NCBI GenBank assembly: GCA_046563655.1
Contig: CM102285.1
Coordinates: 10,106,001-10,170,000, forward strand
Length of the DNA: 64,000 nt
Direction of reading: 5' to 3'
Source: Yuukianura sp. NJ FZ-2021
Taxonomy: Eukaryota
Part shown: one piece after another, positions 2,225-47,231 of the stretch
Position numbering within the stretch: the first letter of the stretch is position 1
Layout: every line of letters begins with the position of its first letter
Translations under genes and position numbers: made by a program
Notes under the pieces: model-generated
Told to the model about the DNA's origin: nothing
Seen by the model: the letters and a program-made list of their open reading frames with translations, nothing else
Database searches by the model: none

Positions 2225-23504
<21,280 letters not shown>

Positions 23505-23625
23505 CCATTAAAGTCAGAGTCCACTTCAGGTCAGTCCAGTTCTGCTGCTGGCGCTGGAGGAGGCGCTTGGTTTCGTTAAAAGCGCAGAGGCTGCGGAAGT
23601 TGGATCTGAAGAAAATCTGACCTTT
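23505..23625 (+). other. Candidate stop-codon readthrough element: 24-codon in-frame extension (23505-23579) overlapping a long RNA stem-loop (23510-23625)
   Basis: TGA-C stop context; in-frame PLKSESTSGQSSSAAGAGGGAWFR then TAA. Nested complementary arms: GTCAGA/TCTGAC, CTTCAGGTC/GATCTGAAG, CAGTTCTGC/GCAGAGGCTG. Confidence 0.6.
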
Positions 23626-24325
23626 GACTCCAAAGATTCGAAGCACTGCGAATCGCTTTAGAAAGTATTCCAAAGCTTCTCAATTCACAATCAGAGTCAA
23701 AGGACTTTCTCCTTAAGAAAAACGTTCTTAATTCCAGTACCTCACTTTGAAGGGTGATTGCTTTCCCCATATTCTTAGAAAATAACTATTATAATTAACA
23801 ACACTAGGTATCAGAAGTGTCCCTCAAAATTTCGGTTTTCAAATTGTTTAGAATTTTGAAACAAGCAGTATTATTATCAAAAAGTTGTAAAATGTGTTGT
23901 TTTTTTAATAGAACCTTTGTAGTTAACTCGTGTCGTGGCGCTTTGTAATACTCGAGTTTGCTAAGATGCGGGCATTAAAAATGTCCCTATTAGACTTAAA
24001 TTTTGTCGTTGTTGCATTTTAATGCTACGGCGGCTGCGCTGTGACTGCGACTAGGCTAAAAGCTGCAATTAACGTCTAGTCTTAACGTAAACCCAAAAGA
24101 TCTCCCTTCTCCCATGAGTAAAAATCAAAAGTCATTAAATTATACCGAATAATGTAAAAAGAATTATTAAAACCGTAAATTGTTAACATGAACTGCTTGT
24201 AAACTCGTTTTCATTTTATAGTTTGCTTGTGGTATTACGAAAACATTTGAAAATTGGAAAGTTTTTTAGAACAGTTGCGTTAGATTGAAAAGTGATGGTT
24301 GATCAATTTGGTCCATCGTTGGTGA

Positions 24326-27260
24326 TTATTCTTCGACATCGTATCGTGAAAAGTATACGACTGTATCTTCAACATGTCGGATTAGTTTAGCTTGGTCTTT
24401 GATGAGCATTCCATATGGATCATCCTTTGCCAAAGCAAGTGGATGTGAAAACTGGATCATGACTAAAAAAAACAAAGGTTTTGAAATGTGACTTTAAAAA
24501 AAGTACACAAAAGTGAATCCAAACCTATAAAGTAGCATAGCGCAGTTCCAACTATCTAAAGAAACACAACAGAGAGGAATTAAAGAAACTTGAAATAAAA
24601 ATGTGCAATTTTTCGATTTCTGTAGTTTTTTTTTGTAGCACTTACTCCTACAAGAAAACTGCGATCAATGTTGGAGTATCCTCCACCGGAAATGGCAATG
24701 TCGAAGTGTCCAGAATAGCTTACGTAGAGACTCATCAACTATTTTAAAACATTTTTTTTTGAAAATTTGAAAATGTAAGATCACTTTTTAAATATTTGAA
24801 ACTGTTTGACTAACAAAGTACAACTCCTCAGGGCTTTTACGACCAAACATTCCTTTGCGTCGAAGCACCTCCAAACCATCCATAGCCTGAAATAAGTAAT
24901 AAATCCGAATTTTCGAAACCTGGAGTACGAAATTCTCAAACACGCCTAAAAACTTACTTCTCCTGTAACGTTTGCACCAGCAAATGAAGCCAAAAGGAGG
25001 AAGATGACGCTGTGCAGAATGTAGAGGATGATGAAGACAATGTCCAATTTCCTAGCGTCTTGGAATTCATCTCCAGTCATACTTCTCCAGAACCAGTACA
25101 TCTCAAAGATCAAGCTGAAAACTTGAGCGGAAAAGTAAGTGTCAATGGTTTCAGCAAATAACATGTCAGCTCCATCAACCAAGTCCAGAAGAATTGAATG
25201 ATCTTCAAACAGTTCGCGAAAATTAGTTCTCTTTCCAAGACGATCTTCTAGTACCAACAAGTCGTCACCTTCGATTTCAAAATTTTGGAATTGGTTAACT
25301 CAATTTTGGACTCAACGACCTTTGACCTTGCTTGATAGAAATGCAATTCAGCAGTGTTTCCAAAACTTACCGCGGTTGAGTACGAGGTCCAGACGTTGAT
25401 TCCACAAGCGAAACGCACCTTCCAGAACTCTACACTGCCAGATGAACAGCATGACGTAGAGCTATAAAGTACAACTGATTTGAAATTTTGTTTTCCAGAA
25501 CATTTCAAGTTGTTCAAAATTTTGAATTTGATCATTGCAGAGGTGCAATATAAGGCAAACCAACCTTGGCTGCAAGAATAAGGTAAATCATGAATGCTTG
25601 GGCGTAAATTCGTAGTGTTATGTACAATGTGTGGTTCCTGTACACGCTAGGATATGCGATACGCACAAGCAGCATTCCGATGAAGCCTGGGCCTTTATGA
25701 ACAAGGTCAGAAGGTTATAGACGGACTCATCGCAAGGTTATTGACTCCTTGAAATTAAGAACTTACCTCCCGAAGTGATCGGAGAGACGCGGAATACCAT
25801 CATAGCGATTATAACGAGGACGAAAGACACAAATCCAAAGTTCATAAAAAAATTGAAACGTTGGAGACCTTGAGCAGCATGCACTTGCATTAGATCAAGT
25901 GAACTGAAAAAAACGTATCATTTTTTTTTCAATTCCGACGAATTTGTGAAATTTTGATACAAATTGACCTTACTTGGCGCAGTAGCCGAAGTATTGGTAA
26001 ATGTATGTTCTTTTTCTAAACGTTCTCCAATTTGCAGCGTTGACATGAAACAAAAGCATTCCAATGACGACGCCCAATGCAATGTTGCGGTAAAATATGT
26101 ACATTTCCTCCGCTAAAATTTCAAGTTTAATCATCCTAGTTTTCTTGTATTTAATTTAACTGAACTCTGACCTCTGGCATTCCACTTGTCCCCTCCTGCA
26201 ACTCCATCGTCAGCATCCATCATTGGAGAATTGAGTATGATAGAAACAAGATTCAAGACGTAGGCAATAGTAACAAAAAAAATTGTGCCGCTCGTGACGA
26301 AAAAACCGAGCCCCTGGAGATACTGCCAGTAGAATTCAAATCTGCCGTCGGCGATTCGATGATACTCAACAGGAAACCGAAACAGAACGCCTGCCAAGTA
26401 CTTGTATTGTCGGAATCCGTCGACATAAGCTTCGGAACATTTCTTGTCACGAATTTCTTCATCAATATGGAGTACTGTTTCGCCCTCTCCTACCCAAGCC
26501 TGGTTTAAATTTTCAAAAACGATTTCATTTTAACAAAATTTAATACAGGAACGCTATGAAACTTGAAATATACAAAGTTACGCAACCCGAGATTCTTCGA
26601 CGACTTTGTCAATGGCAGCCTTTGTAGTAGATTGAAGCTCAGCTAGGAAAAAATTAAATACACACTTGGGTTGATTTTTAGAAGAAAAAAAAACTTGTTT
26701 AGTTCAGTTTAAAAAGCGTTTTACGGGAAGAAGCTTTTGATTTTCCTGCGACAGCAAGCTTGAATCCAGGAGGAGCCACCGCAGGCTTTTTTTTCGGTTT
26801 TGCTCCTTCATGCGATGGGTGCTGAAAAAAGTTGAATTATTGATCATAAAAATAAAGTGACTGCTTAATAAAAGTTCTAGTTACTCTAAAAAGCTTTACG
26901 TGTGAATGTTTTCGTCCAACGCTTTTACGGGATTGATGAAAGTCAACCGAAGAAGATTGCTTTAAGATTGACGGTAGAGTGGATGCAGACGGAACCTCTG
27001 AGACCTGCTTAGGTGTCGTAGCTCCGGTTGTCATGGGTGTACGAGCCCATGGTGGCACTGGTGGGCCCGTTCTTGGTGGAATACGTGAAGGCGTTCCTGG
27101 TGTTCCGAGTCCGGGGCGCATCGTAGTCAGAGACGGAACTTTGTTTTCTTTATTATTGTAAACTAGTAAATTGCTAGCCTTTGACCTTTGAACAGGCCTA
27201 CAAAATTATGATTCTCTTAGAACCGAACAACTACTAAAAATTGGTACGCAATTGTTTCAT
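24326..27260 (-). CDS. Gustatory-receptor-like 7TM chemoreceptor with long N-terminal extension
   Basis: Multi-exon model with several hydrophobic helices. The C-terminal region reads ISGGGYSNIDRSFLVG|IVGTALCYFI|VMIQF, a variant of the Gr TM7 TYxxxhxQF motif. Three consecutive phase-0 introns near the C-terminus (TGE|AMD, LYF|LMS, LVG|IVG) match the Gr superfamily pattern. Stop TAA at 24326-24328. Start inferred from mini-exon 27260-27248 (MKQL); alternative start 27121. Confidence 0.78.
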
Positions 27261-37523: not shown

Positions 37524-38865
37524 CTATGAATCTGCTGACGTTATAAAACATATCGGCATTTCAATTGTACAATCAACCAGTTCCTCTTCTTCTCCCACAG
37601 GAATATCCTCGGACAGAATTTCGTGTTCCATGTTTAAATTGTGTCTATCATCGTCATCTTCATGTCCCAGACACTTTGATTCCTGATGTTCATCAAGCAG
37701 TAAATTGGTCGTCATTGCTTCACTGGCTTCCATTTCCTCCACATCGTGTCCCAACATTTCTTGTTCGGTTTGAATGACAACTTCTTCTGCTTCTATGATG
37801 TCACCGTTAATTGTGGCGACATGGAGGCCAGAGTCTTCGGTAATTTCATTGTCATCAATTTCTTGTAGTTGCCCGTTGGCATCGATTGTAAGATGACGCA
37901 CTTCATCTCCATCGCTGAGTTCCTAAATTCAATGAAAAATCCATTTTATTTATTATTCGCCTTAACGTTGACATTGCATAGAATTATCGAAAGCGGAAGT
38001 CTTACAAAAGTATGGTTGTCACTGTTCGGGTTGGTAAGAACTGTAATAACTGTCGAATGAGATGTATGTTCCAGTGACAAGTGTTGGCCATTTTCATCTT
38101 CGATTCGAAGCACTTCGAATTTAGGTTTAGATACTTCGTTATCGATGGTTTGAGAGAAAATGAACGGACGTGATCCAATGTTGGGTTCATCTTGCTCATT
38201 TTTAACGTCTGGGAGAATGAAAACATTTCTGTTGGCCTTTCTCACTGAAACGGAAATAAAATCATTAAATAAATTAAATAATAAATTAAATCAATTAATC
38301 TCGCGTTAGTTTCAGTGTTACCACGAGAGAAAAGTACGAAAATTGCAATTTCCAATCACCTTTCAAGATTTTCTTCCCTTCCAAAATATCAATTTGATGT
38401 TGTAGCTGGTTAATTTTCTCCTTCAATTTTTTGTTCTCGTGCTTCAGGAAGCCCTGCTTGTCTGCGTCTGAAATAATTCACATGTATCAAACAATATCTT
38501 AACAGCTAAATTATCAGTCCGACTCCGAGCTTACCTTGTTTGATGCGATGAACCGCAGCTTTATTGACTCCCAGTTCACTCGACAAAATACGAATGGATT
38601 TCATTGGATCATTCTTGATGGCATTCTGCACAAGAGCTATCTTCTCTTCCGTTCTGGCAGTTTTTGGTCTTCCAGTTCTCGACAAATCTGCAACACTTCC
38701 GGTTTCGTCAAACTTCTTATTCAATGCTGCAATTGTTTTTCTCGTAGGAGGATCAGTTCCGAATTCTTTCGTCCAGGCTAATTGGATAGTAGAAGCTTTT
38801 TCATATTTAGAATATAGACGGACGACACGTATTCTTTCCTCCAATGTTAACCTTGTCAACGGCAT
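37524..38865 (-). CDS. ~358-aa protein with Tc1/mariner-transposase-like N-terminal bipartite HTH (DUF4817-like), coiled coil and acidic C-terminus; probable domesticated transposase fragment
   Basis: Exons 38865-38535, 38467-38360, 38244-38006 and 37922-37524 join in frame (1077 nt). N-terminus LTLEERIRVVRLY...PPTRKTIAALNKKFDETGSVADLSRTGRPKTARTEEKI...PMKSIRILSSELGVNKAAVHRI is typical of mariner-like DNA-binding regions (GRPR-like linker). No DDD/DDE domain follows. Confidence 0.75.
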
Positions 38866-41467
38866 TTTATAATGAAAGGAATTCGGGACGTGACGACGTA
38901 GTATACGACAGCGAATGTGCCTTCTTCCAATTTGAATTCAGATGCGTTGAATGTTGAAAATGTAGAAAGAATGTCAAAGGCCCACCTTTACTGCAGTAGT
39001 AGTTAGATTGTAAAGTACTAAGGTATTATAAAAATACAACTTGCTCAACCATCGTCGTTCTCGTTAGCGAAAAAAATCGATTTTACCTAGAAAATTCACA
39101 AAATTTGGAAATTACAACTTTACAAAAATAGCAATCCATTTCCGATGAATATTGAATTACCTTGTGCCTCTGTCAGTGTTTCATTAAATTCATAATTAAA
39201 ATCGTGATTAGCAATGAGATTTTAAGATCAGACTAAACTAAAGAATTTAAAAGAAAACTTAACAACCAAAGAAAACAGGTGCTACCTTGTTGAAGTAAGG
39301 ATTAACGGCATTATTGTAACCGCACAGTATTACTTCGACTTCGGTCATCATTCATTCCTTCATCAGTCATTTTTCATTTGTGACTACAATAGGTGCCTGC
39401 ATCTTGATAACAACCTATTTAGCCACTTTAATCAATTAACCAAATATATTTAGCTACGAAAGTGTTGTGGCATGCCTAAAGTGGTAACATAAATTGCCGC
39501 ATAGTGTAGCCAATCATTGTGGCCGCAATGCAATGTGACTATGCCGTGTGGCTACAGTGATGATGGTTATACCTTACCACCCAGAATATTTATTTTTATT
39601 TTTTTGATTGCCGCTCTTCAGAATTGATTTTTGACTAAACTGGAATTTCGACAGTATTGAGTGAGACAGTTTGTGACAGAATTGGCAGCAATAACAAGAC
39701 AGTTGCAACAATAAGCAGACAAGTTGGTCTCTAATTGCTTTAGCCATTTAACAAACTAAAAACTAATTTGCAATTTTCGTAAGTTAGTTTTAAAATAAAA
39801 TCATAAATTAGTTTTTCAGGTTTCTATTACGATAAGCTGGCTCAACTGAATGCTCATTATGAAATTAATCAGAACACAAGAGCATTTGTTCATTCAGCAT
39901 CTTTACTGTATTAAGGTTTTTCGCTGTAGTGTAAATCGATTTGGTAACTTTTAATTTTTTTTTCATAACTGCATTTACTTCCGCAGGATGCTTCCTTTTA
40001 GAAGAAAAAGTAACTTCATCGCGAACTGCCCCAGTTTTTTTTGCAATACAACTTTTTTTTTGTTAAGTTTAAGCGAAAGTGAATAATTATTTTTACAAAC
40101 TTGGCAACTTTACTCACTGCCTGCCCACAGCCGCCATTTCCTTCTTACTTGTTTTGTTCTATGCCGTAATTTCCCCGATAAGTTTCTGTCACACTTCCAA
40201 AGTGCAAAATGATTTACTTAATAGGTCGTGAGCAACGGAAAATTAAGAGGCACGTTTACTTAATCTACTTATCAAGGCAGGAAGGAAATAAACACTGTAA
40301 AGAGCACATTAAATTTAGAGTTTTTGAATTAATGATGGATACTACCTCTAGTCAACACGCTCTCGTGTAAATATTTTAGTTTCCAAGATTTCATCAAGTT
40401 AAGAAAATGTAGGTTGAATTGAGCATAAATTTTCAAAATCAGGATGCTAAAAAGCCTTCCTGTTTTTCTTGTTAGTTGTATCTTGAAGAATTTAAAAAAT
40501 AGCATCATTTTCATTGGTTTCGATTTTTTCTTTGAAATGTCAGAATCAGAATTTTGGCTAATTGTCAAATTGTCAAAAATTGGAACTACGGTAGACCGAC
40601 TTGTCCTTGCGGCAATACGCTTATTTTTCAATTGACTAAGCATCGAAAGCGCAGTTCAATGACAACCTTAATTAATCCTTTTCTTTACCTTGGCACTTAA
40701 AATTAAGATATTAAAGATAGATTTTTACTTAAATTAGCAGAAATTCTTTAATTAGCAATGCCAAGTAAAAGTCAATGTTAGATTATTGTCTCTTTTTGCT
40801 GGCGAGAGAGCGTGATTTTTAGTCATATTGCAAAAAGATGGAGATGCAGGATTAGATCTTGAAGATTACTTTCAAAGGCGCTAGAATCGCTGATTTGTGA
40901 AAAGTTAATTTTCAACTGACATAACCTAAGCACTTATCATTTATTATGGAAGCACGGTAGCTGACTGAAGCTCGTACTTATGAGATGTGACGGAAGTAGT
41001 TGAGCGTGATGCCTTTTGTGTCGCTTTTGGCACAGGTAAGAAGCATAACCAGATGACTTTGGGGTCACTGGCTGTGCATCCAACCAACTAATGGAAGAGA
41101 ATTATTATGTAATAGGCTAAAAAAATAAGAATACGTTTTATGCAGTTGTTGTTGTTGGTTCACTTTAAATTTAATTGAGTCCGTGGGCTAAGGACTCAAA
41201 AGAGTCAGGATATGTGGCAATAATATGGAGGGGAAATAATGATGATGTGGTGAATGTACAATCCGGAAGGAAAGGGAAGATTTGGACCAGATCCCACCAA
41301 AAGGCATAAGGCCCACCACCATACATACTACATGTCCCACCCAACTTCAACCCACCAACATATCATAATCAACACCAAAGTACCTTCCCAATCATGCCTT
41401 GAAACAAAAGGCTATGAGGGGGTCCTTAGTGCCAATTTCCTTGACATAATCCCTCTAAAGTTAATCC

Positions 41468-45916: not shown

Positions 45917-45954
45917 TATATAAGACGCTGGAGAAATTTCAAAAGTCATCATTC
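45917..45954 (+). promoter_or_regulatory. TATA box + Inr of the Pro-rich repeat gene
   Basis: TATATAA at 45917-45923; TCATTC at 45949-45954; ATG at 46020. Confidence 0.55.
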
Positions 45955-46019
45955 AGCCTTTGCCTAACTCCCAAAGTCAGGTAGAGCTACAGTCCAGCAA
46001 CGAAACAAAGGGTTTTAAA

Positions 46020-47231
46020 ATGGAGTCATCCGCAGTTGTTTTCGTAGCCTTGTTGGCTATGGCCCATGGGTTCATCCTTCCACCTCCGGTTATCGTAACG
46101 CCAGGAATTAACCCAGGGTATGAGTCGCCAAGCTTCAACCCAGCACCGGCCAACCCCGGGTACGAATCGCCAACTTTCAATCCAGCACCGGCCAACCCAG
46201 GATACGAATCGCCAACTTTCAATCCAGCACCGGCCAATCCAGGGTACGAATCGCCAACCTTCAACCCAGGGTATGAGTCACCAACCTTCAACCCAGCACC
46301 AGCCAACCCAGGGTACGAATCGCCAACCTTCAACCCAGGGTATGAATCGCCAACCTTCAACCCAGCACCGGCCAACCCAGGGTACGAATCGCCAACGTTC
46401 AACCCAGGCGCTGGAACACCAATCACAACCCTGCCAGTAGGGAGCGGAAGCGGTAGCAACCACGGGGGATGCAGCGACGACTCACCAATCTCCACCATGC
46501 CAGTAGAATTACCAGCACCAATCTCCACCAAACCAGCTCCAGCTCCAGTACCAGTGGAATTGCCAGCACCCATCTCCACCAAACCAGCTCCAGCTCCAGT
46601 GCCAGTGGAATTGCCAGCACCCATCTCCACCAAACCAGCTCCAGCTCCAGTGCCAGTGGAATTGCCAGCACCAATCTCCACCAAACCAGCTCCAGCTCCA
46701 GTGCCAGTGGAATTGCCAGCACCAATCTCCACCAAACCAGCTCCAGCTCCAGTGCCAGTGGAATTGCCAGCACCAATCTCTACCAAACCAGCTCCAGTGC
46801 CAGTGGAATTACCAGCACCAATTTGCACCATGCCAGTTGAAGGTCCGACCAATAAGCTTCCAGTCGAGACGCCAGTTGCCCTTCCAGCTCCAGTCGAGAC
46901 GCCAGTTGCCACCCAGCCAATTGTCCTGCCAGCTCCAGTCGAGACGCCAGTTGCCCTTCCAGCTCCAGTCGAGACTCCAGTTGCCCTTCCAGCTCCAGTC
47001 GAGACGCCAGTTGCCACCCCGCCAATTGTTCTTCCAGCTCCAGTCGAGACTCCAGTTGCCCTTCCAGCTCCAGTCGACACGCCAGTTGCCACTCAGCCAA
47101 TTGCCCTTCCACCTCCAGTGCACGCTCCAATCTCCACTCGCCCAGCCCCAGAGAGTCCCACCAAGCTTCCAAGCCCAGTTCAAATTCCTGCTGGAGTTCA
47201 CATTGGACGACCACAATACATTCCATACTAA
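46020..47231 (+). CDS. Intronless secreted proline-rich tandem-repeat protein (mucin/extensin-like or cuticular)
   Basis: AAAATGG start context; signal peptide MESSAVVFVALLAMAHG; three Pro-rich repeat blocks; upstream TATA; AATAAA about 70 nt after the stop. Confidence 0.85.
   Translation: MESSAVVFVALLAMAHGFILPPPVIVTPGINPGYESPSFNPAPANPGYESPTFNPAPANPGYESPTFNPAPANPGYESPTFNPGYESPTFNPAPANPGYESPTFNPGYESPTFNPAPANPGYESPTFNPGAGTPITTLPVGSGSGSNHGGCSDDSPISTMPVELPAPISTKPAPAPVPVELPAPISTKPAPAPVPVELPAPISTKPAPAPVPVELPAPISTKPAPAPVPVELPAPISTKPAPAPVPVELPAPISTKPAPVPVELPAPICTMPVEGPTNKLPVETPVALPAPVETPVATQPIVLPAPVETPVALPAPVETPVALPAPVETPVATPPIVLPAPVETPVALPAPVDTPVATQPIALPPPVHAPISTRPAPESPTKLPSPVQIPAGVHIGRPQYIPY
46110..46409 (+). 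repeat. Coding tandem repeat block 1: 42-bp unit (NPGYESPTFNPAPA) with 27-bp truncated units
   Basis: Eight NPGYESP(T/S)F cores visible in the translation. Confidence 0.9.
46500..46832 (+). repeat. Coding tandem repeat block 2: 51-bp unit (PVELPAPISTKPAPAPV), about 6.5 copies
   Basis: Near-identical DNA units ccagtggaattgccagcaccaatctccaccaaaccagctccagctccagtg. Confidence 0.9.
46860..47120 (+). repeat. Coding tandem repeat block 3: 30/45-bp units (PVETPVALPA / PVETPVATQPIVLPA)
   Basis: Repeated ccagtcgagacgccagttgcccttccagct units. Confidence 0.9.

Follow-up and report, generated by a model that had tools for sequence, protein, structure and literature searches.

A probable programmed readthrough site at the conserved UGA-C stop of an ERG/FLI1-type ETS gene in a springtail-like hexapod

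The 3' end of an ETS transcription factor gene in Yuukianura sp. NJ FZ-2021 raises the question of whether its stop codon simply ends the protein or lets a fraction of the ribosomes continue into a downstream frame. We studied this locus in a stretch of 64,000 nt (assembly GCA_046563655.1, contig CM102285.1, positions 10,106,001 to 10,170,000 of the forward strand), hereafter called the window and numbered from its first letter. An initial annotation of this DNA had proposed a programmed UGA-C readthrough cassette that adds a short C-terminal extension to the protein. The proposal is well supported by comparison with orthologues: the stop together with its context is conserved, relatives maintain the frame of the extension, and the fly orthologue Ets65A is annotated as a readthrough gene. 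We consider the UGA-C stop to be probably a conserved programmed readthrough site that gives a C-terminally extended ETS isoform. The coordinates of all features are collected in Table 1.

The coding sequence (CDS) ends with ...CAC TAT GCG TGA C (23493-23505), i.e. with a leaky stop context, UGA followed by C at position +4 (23502-05). Both the sequence and its translation confirm that the frame then stays open for 24 codons up to a TAA at 23577-79, as had been claimed. The GC content of this extension is 0.556, like that of the last-exon CDS (0.55), versus 0.343 for 23628-24400; its initial description as a GC-rich, coding-like segment preceding an AT-rich untranslated region (UTR) was correct. 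There is no ATG in any frame of the extension, which argues against separate initiation.

Two upstream open frames match the Pfam Ets family (PF00178), and a homologue search with the last exon read through the stop retrieved 45 proteins at E ≤ 0.01. The named matches among these are arthropod DNA-binding protein D-ETS-3, transcriptional regulator ERG homolog and FLI1 homologues, the best named one being from the springtail Allacma fusca (83% over the last exon). The C-terminal exon, ...ANLYSNIAA...SYPHYA, is common to proteins named D-ETS-3, ERG or FLI1 homologue (alignment A1). A search of representative proteins gave 16 matches and added nothing to the 45-protein set, and none of the 8 matches of a near-length homologue search carried an extension. 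On the basis of these similarities, we assign the gene to the ERG/FLI1-type ETS factors, as the D-ETS-3/Ets65A orthologue of a springtail-like hexapod; the Ets65A orthology guessed at the outset holds.

Metagenome contigs were scanned with the last-exon peptide alignment A1, yielding 81 pattern matches and 21 confirmed loci (L001-L021), of which 20 reach ...HYA (L021 falls short of it). The stop is TGA in 18 of the 20 loci and TGA-C in 15, and all TGA-C loci read TGA-C(C/A)A wherever the next bases are present (the contig of L012 ends after TGA-CC). The five other loci have TAG-G (L013), TGA-G (L014), TGA-A (L015 and L016) and TAA-T (L020). Each locus was placed by its nearest named last exon: L001-L005 are springtail-like (83-92% to Allacma), L006-L012 are cockroach/termite-like (exon identical to that of Periplaneta), L018 has an exon identical to that of the mayfly Cloeon, L019 is louse-like (79%), L017 is oribatid-mite-like (94.5%), L020 is of another mite type, and L013-L016 are unplaced. 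L006-L012 were counted as one lineage; the six that were aligned are near-identical, and their whole 3' UTR is too similar to inform. The sequence TGA-C(C/A)A is found in 14 of 14 hexapod-like loci (L001-L012, L018 and L019), which represent about 9 lineages counting the window, and in one of the six other loci (L017).

Among representative sequences, 35-76% of same-residue codons differ. The last-exon protein of the window is identical to that of L001, with synonymous differences in 20 of 47 identical-residue codons, corresponding to a nonsynonymous divergence (dN) of 0 and a synonymous divergence (dS) of 1.48 over the last-exon CDS. Because synonymous sites are near saturation, the shared stop context is not due to recent ancestry. 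Conservation of the UGA among orthologues, a check put forward in the initial annotation, is thus borne out. The pattern resembles the PhyloCSF-catalogued insect readthrough of Jungreis et al. 2016 (PMC5100048): in the available passages of that paper, TGA and a C at +4 are commonest among ancient readthrough genes, a preference matched here by TGA-C in all hexapod-like loci. It differs in that the catalogue draws on PhyloCSF-grade alignments whereas our comparison of the extension covers four species, and springtails and Ets65A outside Diptera do not occur in those passages.

Open reading frames (ORFs) from Logan, ENA and JGI were consistent with a leaky-type stop: 11 of the 28 fetched read on through W after HYA (after HYASP in two aphid-like ones). 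P0001 is the translation of L002, so its W after HYA corresponds to TGA; for the other ORFs a TGA is presumed. The aphid-like proteins P0041, P0045 and P0052 end in ...HYASP, and the Logan ORFs go on with W-P; the leaky-type stop of aphid-like orthologues seems, from these ends, to be shifted two codons downstream. In the mite-like L017 (370-378), two stops stand one codon apart, TGA CAA TGA, and the JGI ORF P0029 has W-Q-W at this place. The springtail-like L005 reads TGA CAA TTA (1928-1936), which contains the tobamovirus-type CAA-UUA hexamer; according to the available part of Firth et al. 2011 (PMC3159437), this hexamer raised readthrough when placed after the UGA of VEEV (Venezuelan equine encephalitis virus). 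P0002, a springtail-like Logan orthologue, continues with HYA-W-PL... and stays open for about 78 codons, versus 18-24 codons in the window's clade.

Among the FlyBase exceptional gene models, fly Ets65A and one other gene show apparent triple readthrough, as described in the available part of PMC4528330, whose supplement lists Ets65A-PC, -PD and -PE with 22, 145 and 71 aa added after UGA, UAA and UGA. The window resembles this gene in belonging to the orthologous family D-ETS-3 and in its first unit, UGA then UAA, with 22 aa in the fly and 24 aa here, a comparison made by stops and length and not by tail sequence. It differs in that two more readthrough steps follow in the fly (+145 and +71 aa). 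For the window we rejected a second or third readthrough, since the frame after TAA has only 9 codons and then TGA; it has 12 codons in L001 and is out of frame in a public sequencing run of a relative (run X7, see below). Readthrough of Ets65A outside flies was found in none of the searchable papers, and the searchable portions of Jungreis et al. 2016 and its supplements contain no mention of Ets65A.

Tails of the window's type are present in three loci: L001 has PLKTESSSISTTSGSWFR then TAA-A, L002 has PLKTETPSMNNSTTSWLR then TGA-A, and L004 has PLQQRAEREPNSTSIGPSSPAWRY then TAA-A, for comparison with PLKSESTSGQSSSAAGAGGGAWFR then TAA-A in the window. They share the start PLK(S/T)E (altered in L004, see below) and the end (S/A)W(F/L/R)(R/Y)-stop, and they keep one frame despite an 18-nt length difference. 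Conserved tail residues are encoded by various codons (Leu by TTA or CTA; Arg by CGT, CGC or CGA).

Assembled contigs of four public runs were also compared with the window, and three of the runs (X1, X4 and X7) contribute sequences closer to it than the metagenome loci; where runs X1, X6 and X7 lack contigs within 23100-24700, the gaps were not interpreted. Run X4 represents another organism, about 2% different, with one amino acid change in the extension (23524 C>T) and a TGA in place of TAA as second stop. Run X7 contains a spliced mRNA-type contig that lacks the 118-nt intron; from 23360 it continues across the stop with no further splice and reaches no less than 45 nt beyond 23575. It lacks 3 nt at 23535, which keeps the frame, and has CGC TGA in place of the window's CGT TAA. 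Run X1 differs at 23524 (C>G), and an RNA-library contig of run X6 (23697-23865) indicates presence only. Base 23524 thus occurs in three states, C in the window, G in runs X1 and X7, and T in run X4; it is both the closing pair of a CUUCAG/CUGAAG stem and the second position of a Thr codon (Thr/Ser/Ile).

Both stops are present in all six clade sequences, with C after the first and A after the second; an A at +4 is described as a strong-termination signal in the available text of a 2026 preprint (PMC13278127). The initial annotation had also read a SUMO-type motif, LKSE, and a terminal WFR motif in the extension. The SUMO consensus is psi-K-x-E. These motifs are largely kept in the clade: LK(S/T)E is found in five of the six sequences (LKSE in the window and run X4; LKTE in L001, L002 and run X7) and is lost in L004, which has LQQR, and a terminal W-x-(R/Y) is found in all five sequences with a readable end (that of run X7 being read in part). 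Their function is putative and one of the weaker parts of the proposal. NG86 (Nei-Gojobori) estimates over 18 aligned codons of the extension give a dN/dS of about 0.4 (0.30/0.67, 0.44/1.07 and 0.40/1.04). Frame-keeping length differences (18 nt; 3 nt in run X7), end motifs and this ratio speak for a protein-coding signature, which is weak: the codons are few, the species are four, no excess at third positions is seen between the window and L001, and dS is lowered.

Several observations weigh against selection on a readthrough product. Differences in the extension are distributed over the three codon positions as 5/5/6 (window-L001), 10/2/9 (window-L002) and 6/5/9 (L001-L002). The dN of the extension is far above that of the CDS, the middle of the L004 tail is barely alignable (dN 1.41), and the extensions of different orders cannot be aligned at all. 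The frame of run X7 rests on 12 of 19 differences over the last exon and extension, with an in-frame stop still possible, and the Logan HYA-W set is biased toward TGA because only gene calls that read TGA as W reveal such ORFs. The dS of the extension (0.67) is lower than that of the CDS (1.48), therefore pointing to an overlapping nucleotide-level constraint, which could explain part of the conservation.

Such a constraint would be the whole explanation if the stop context and the downstream stretch served the RNA alone, forming a 3' UTR stem-loop that governs mRNA stability, localisation or protein binding, with any readthrough product an unselected by-product. The lowered dS with its much higher dN and the even 5/5/6 distribution fit this scenario, as do two properties of the hairpin described below: its 3' arm, past the second stop, is 67% identical between the window and L001 versus a background of about 50%, and its fold is strand-specific. 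On the other hand, TGA-C(C/A)A is fixed in lineages without a comparable fold, the length differences keep the W-x-x-stop block in frame, the second stop is fixed in place while alternating between TAA and TGA, and the fly orthologue is annotated as a readthrough gene. We consider an exclusively RNA-level function unlikely. Past the hairpin, the identity of the 3' UTR between the window and L001 drops to about 50%. Within this region, a 14-nt island, ATTCCAGTACCTCA (window 23734-23747), is identical in L001 and may be a regulatory site.

Tails of other orders have their own sequences. The cockroach/termite-type tail PDPGWSREYRRLTM is kept in six loci, and P0003 has PDPGWTREYRRLAM. The louse-like tail PTPTAWGARDPYRRPL... 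(L019:1664-1786) and the cockroach/termite-like tail PDPGWSREYRRLTM (L006:2148-2189) both follow P-x-P...W...YRR.L, and these very short stretches may be remotely homologous.

Alternative splicing, or another transcript variant that joins downstream coding sequence, is a standard confounder of readthrough signatures (PMC4528330, available part), and a potential donor GT at 23501-02 does overlap the stop. The spliced contig of run X7 is nevertheless colinear across the stop, and a donor at this place would make the extension intronic and leave its frame conservation unexplained, which renders this explanation highly improbable. Decoding of the UGA as selenocysteine would also be compatible with an in-frame UGA followed by an open frame. 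We give it almost no credence, as no selenocysteine insertion sequence (SECIS) matched in 23300-24000 at E ≤ 10, nor in the whole window at gathering score, and the fly orthologue is annotated as readthrough.

Downstream of the stop, the initial annotation had described a hairpin of about 110 nt, and this structure proved sound. The minimum-energy fold of 23505-23630 has -49.2 kcal/mol, beyond dinucleotide shuffles (mean -38.05, standard deviation 3.92, z -2.84; 2 of 200 as stable), and its stem begins 3-8 nt after the stop. The minus strand reaches -33.9 kcal/mol (z -0.98; 30 of 200 shuffles); the hairpin is specific to the mRNA strand because of its G-U pairs. In a tiling of the + strand with 3194 windows of 126 nt, the one at 23501 ranks fourth by energy and is the third distinct locus. 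Among the four arm pairs originally claimed, GTCAGA/TCTGAC, CTTCAGGTC/GATCTGAAG (with one G-U) and GCT/AGC are complementary, whereas CAGTTCTGC/GCAGAGGCTG are so only in part; the minimum-energy fold instead pairs 23534-45 with 23593-23605. The motif AGUCCAnUUC occurs twice in the window (23518-27 and 23533-42) and once in L001, and the 3' arm GAAGUUGGAUCUGAAG can pair with either copy. The fold is kept with the changes of runs X1 and X4 (-49.1 and -46.1 kcal/mol, respectively), and in run X4 the changes 23524 C>T, 23589 G>A and 23595 G>A keep pairs.

The most stable 126-nt folds of the window lie at 2861-3046 (down to -54.7 kcal/mol), where the ETS gene has a coding exon for its N-terminal part that is rich in GC (frame 2662-3132). 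Second in stability comes 39441-39606 (-49.5 kcal/mol at 46% GC), about 500 nt from a minus-strand open frame of 143 aa (38506-38937); this fold may represent a mobile-element inverted repeat.

A long, imperfect, strand-specific hairpin might also be a microRNA precursor or a substrate for ADAR editing in the 3' UTR. Nowhere in the window does an Rfam family attain its gathering score, and on the + strand inside the hairpin the sole match at E ≤ 10 is SNORD41 (23600-23633, E 9.7). No microRNA family was found in the hairpin, the nearest weak match being on the minus strand (23619-23705, 21.2 bits versus 83 needed). The stem has many internal loops and its 3' arm is less conserved than the 5' arm; a role as microRNA precursor or editing substrate is scarcely probable.

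The structure was compared in relatives by folding the 126 nt after the stop. The z-scores are -2.01 for L001, -1.64 for L002, -1.29 for L005, -0.82 for L004, -0.56 for L018, -0.38 for L019, +1.13 for L006 and +1.74 for L003. The stable fold is limited to the window and its two nearest relatives, L001 and L002, with weak statistics. Folded alone, each of these three has a downstream arm that pairs with positions 20-24 after the stop, and both sides change at position 20 (C-G in the window, G-C in L001, C-G in L002) and position 24 (A-U, A-U and C-G, in the same order); L001 and L002 further differ from each other on both sides of the pairs at positions 16 and 19. L002 keeps 10 of 12 stem pairs of L001, a value equalled by 72 of 2000 shuffles. 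Mapped on the window, the L001 stem retains 8 or 9 of 12 pairs, values reached by 1857 and 1155 of 2000 shuffles, respectively; this mapping is uninformative because of the 18-nt length difference and the duplicated AGUCCAnUUC motif. A covariance model built from the L001 hairpin alone (one stretch entered twice) matches in the window only a small apical hairpin at 23563-86 (12.1 bits, E 0.0062 in 601 nt, or E 1.1 in 104,572 bases), in which GCGCU/AGCGC replaces the GGGUU/AGCCC of L001.

Other results on conservation of the hairpin were mostly weak or negative. No significant fold is seen in L003, L004, L005, L006, L018 or L019. A duplex-energy test is significant only for L001 (2 of 500), the window and L002 giving 45 and 77 of 500, respectively. 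The covariance model scores 5.5 bits (E 6.9) at the homologous site of L002 and has no match at the homologous place in L003, L004 or L005. Five changes of run X4 fall within 23589-23603 of the 3' arm, and those at 23600, 23602 and 23603 break pairs of the window. RNAalifold, a check put forward in the initial annotation, gave 0 pairs on a MAFFT alignment of L001 and L002; a 2-nt MAFFT gap puts the 3' arms out of register, and the result neither favours the stem nor clearly speaks against it. Our conclusion is that the hairpin is real in the window and, judged from these folds, partly shared with two relatives; it is at best a candidate for a conserved structure.

These results also bear on whether the stop is an ordinary terminator followed by a 3' UTR, with an open frame and a hairpin that arose by chance and no meaningful readthrough. 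A 24-codon open frame is not rare by chance and most of the hairpin comparison tests are weak. Against this stand the invariance of the stop and its context across saturated divergence, the conserved motifs of the extension, the rank of the fold among the 3194 tiled windows, and a GC content of the extension equal to that of the CDS. A chance origin is very unlikely, and programmed readthrough is the reading we retain.

In alphaviruses, UGA-C readthrough is enhanced by extended 3' stem-loops at a spacing of 7-8 nt, and such stem-loops have been predicted in Drosophila hdc and kelch (Firth et al. 2011, PMC3159437, available part). The window resembles these cases and those of tobra-, peclu- and furoviruses in its UGA-C (as in alphaviruses), its short spacer (3-8 nt here, 7-8 nt there) and a stem spanning about 100-150 nt; it differs in that the stems treated in the available text come with many compensatory substitutions and mutagenesis, whereas here the compensatory pairs are few, in three species and with weak statistics. 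In the available passages of Jungreis et al. 2016 (PMC5100048), readthrough-associated structures are reported to come and go over evolution while readthrough itself endures, and a lineage-limited hairpin next to a conserved stop fits this report. The initial claim that the hairpin drives readthrough keeps part of its footing, as the structure is stable here and its core recurs in L001 and L002, and loses another part, as no comparable structure is seen in the other lineages. By analogy with the viral and Drosophila stem-loops, the hairpin could quite possibly stimulate readthrough in this lineage, a role that we put forward tentatively.

Table 1 Features of the ETS locus in the window. Positions are those of the window; X7 is a public sequencing run.
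Feature	Position	Strand	Basis
First part of Ets DNA-binding domain, open frame	22609..22815	+	PF00178, E 3.7e-25, profile positions 1-60 of 81; frame limits, not exon limits
End of Ets domain, open frame	22841..23005	+	PF00178, E 2.4e-6, profile positions 59-80; ORF list
Penultimate coding exon	23157..23243	+	Contig of run X7 in which 23155-23241 is spliced to 23360 and following
Last intron, 118 nt, GT..AG	23244..23361	+	Joint 23241>23360 of run X7 (skips 118, cut +2) and sequence
Last coding exon, ending ...SYPHYA	23362..23501	+	Translation
First stop and context UGA-CCA-UUA	23502..23510	+	TGA-C(C/A)A in 15/20 orthologous loci
Predicted in-frame extension, 24 codons, PLKSESTSGQSSSAAGAGGGAWFR	23505..23576	+	Translation; relatives 18, 18 and 24 codons, same start and end motifs
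Example peptide of predicted extension, SESTSGQSSSAAGAGGGAWFR			
Second stop TAA then A	23577..23580	+	TAA-A/TGA-A at same place in L001, L002, L004, runs X4 and X7
Long imperfect hairpin	23508..23627	+	5' arm in extension, 3' arm past second stop; pair list, minimum free energy -49.2 kcal/mol
Small apical hairpin GCGCU...AGCGC, second stop in loop	23563..23586	+	Sole window match of L001 covariance model

The start of the last coding exon was corrected to 23362 from the sequence and the spliced contig of run X7. The penultimate exon is 80-87% identical to that of L001. A minus-strand ORF at 23320-23679 (119 aa) was rejected as a gene: it matches no Pfam family and merely runs opposite the conserved exon, and L001 has this frame open as well. 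Elsewhere in the window, 45924-47231 holds an open frame of 435 aa with tandem Pro-rich repeats (PANPGYESPTFNPA units, then VELPAPISTKPAPAPVP units); it lies in the only 2-kb bin with a GC content of 0.478.

From the sequence we infer the following course of events. In a fraction of the ribosomes, a near-cognate tRNA would decode the UGA at 23502-04, helped by the +4 C and the CCA-UUA context, and translation would proceed through 24 more codons before ending at the tight TAA-A. The product would be a minor ETS isoform with a disordered-looking tail rich in Ser, Gly and Ala, starting with PLK(S/T)E and ending with W-F-R. In this lineage the hairpin would raise the rate of readthrough, as do the stem-loops of alphaviruses and, by prediction, those of Drosophila hdc and kelch. 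A regulatory role of the tail would have a parallel in the Drosophila POU factor vvl/Drifter (PMC8417969, available part), likewise a developmental transcription factor, in which a readthrough extension alters activity; that factor differs in belonging to another family, in its UAG stop and in the length of its extension (286 aa).

More speculatively, and with less confidence than for the hairpin, UGA-C(C/A)A might be a leaky site under selection from a time before the hexapod orders diverged, perhaps already in the ancestor that they share with mites. Each lineage would then have remodelled its tail around a Trp-containing end (AWFR, SWLR, AWRY, PGWSREYRRL and TAWGARDPYRRPL) and acquired or given up a stimulatory RNA stem of its own. 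If true, this would be one of the oldest animal readthrough sites, and if the mite site is truly leaky, readthrough here would be older than the Pancrustacea-specific rise of abundant readthrough that Jungreis et al. proposed.

In summary, no new mechanism is revealed, since readthrough of fly Ets65A is annotated and hundreds of insect readthrough genes are known. The new element is breadth: one leaky context is present in all hexapod-like orthologues sampled and in one mite-like orthologue, with tails and structures that are specific to each lineage. This context is fixed across springtail-, cockroach/termite-, mayfly- and louse-like sequences, and in a basal hexapod clade a short tail has retained its frame. 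Together with tail and stem, the stop and its context make up a compact system of about 130 nt, which would suit the study of how an RNA stem and a hexanucleotide context may cooperate in insect-type readthrough, and of whether a short C-terminal tail may modulate an ERG/FLI1-class factor.

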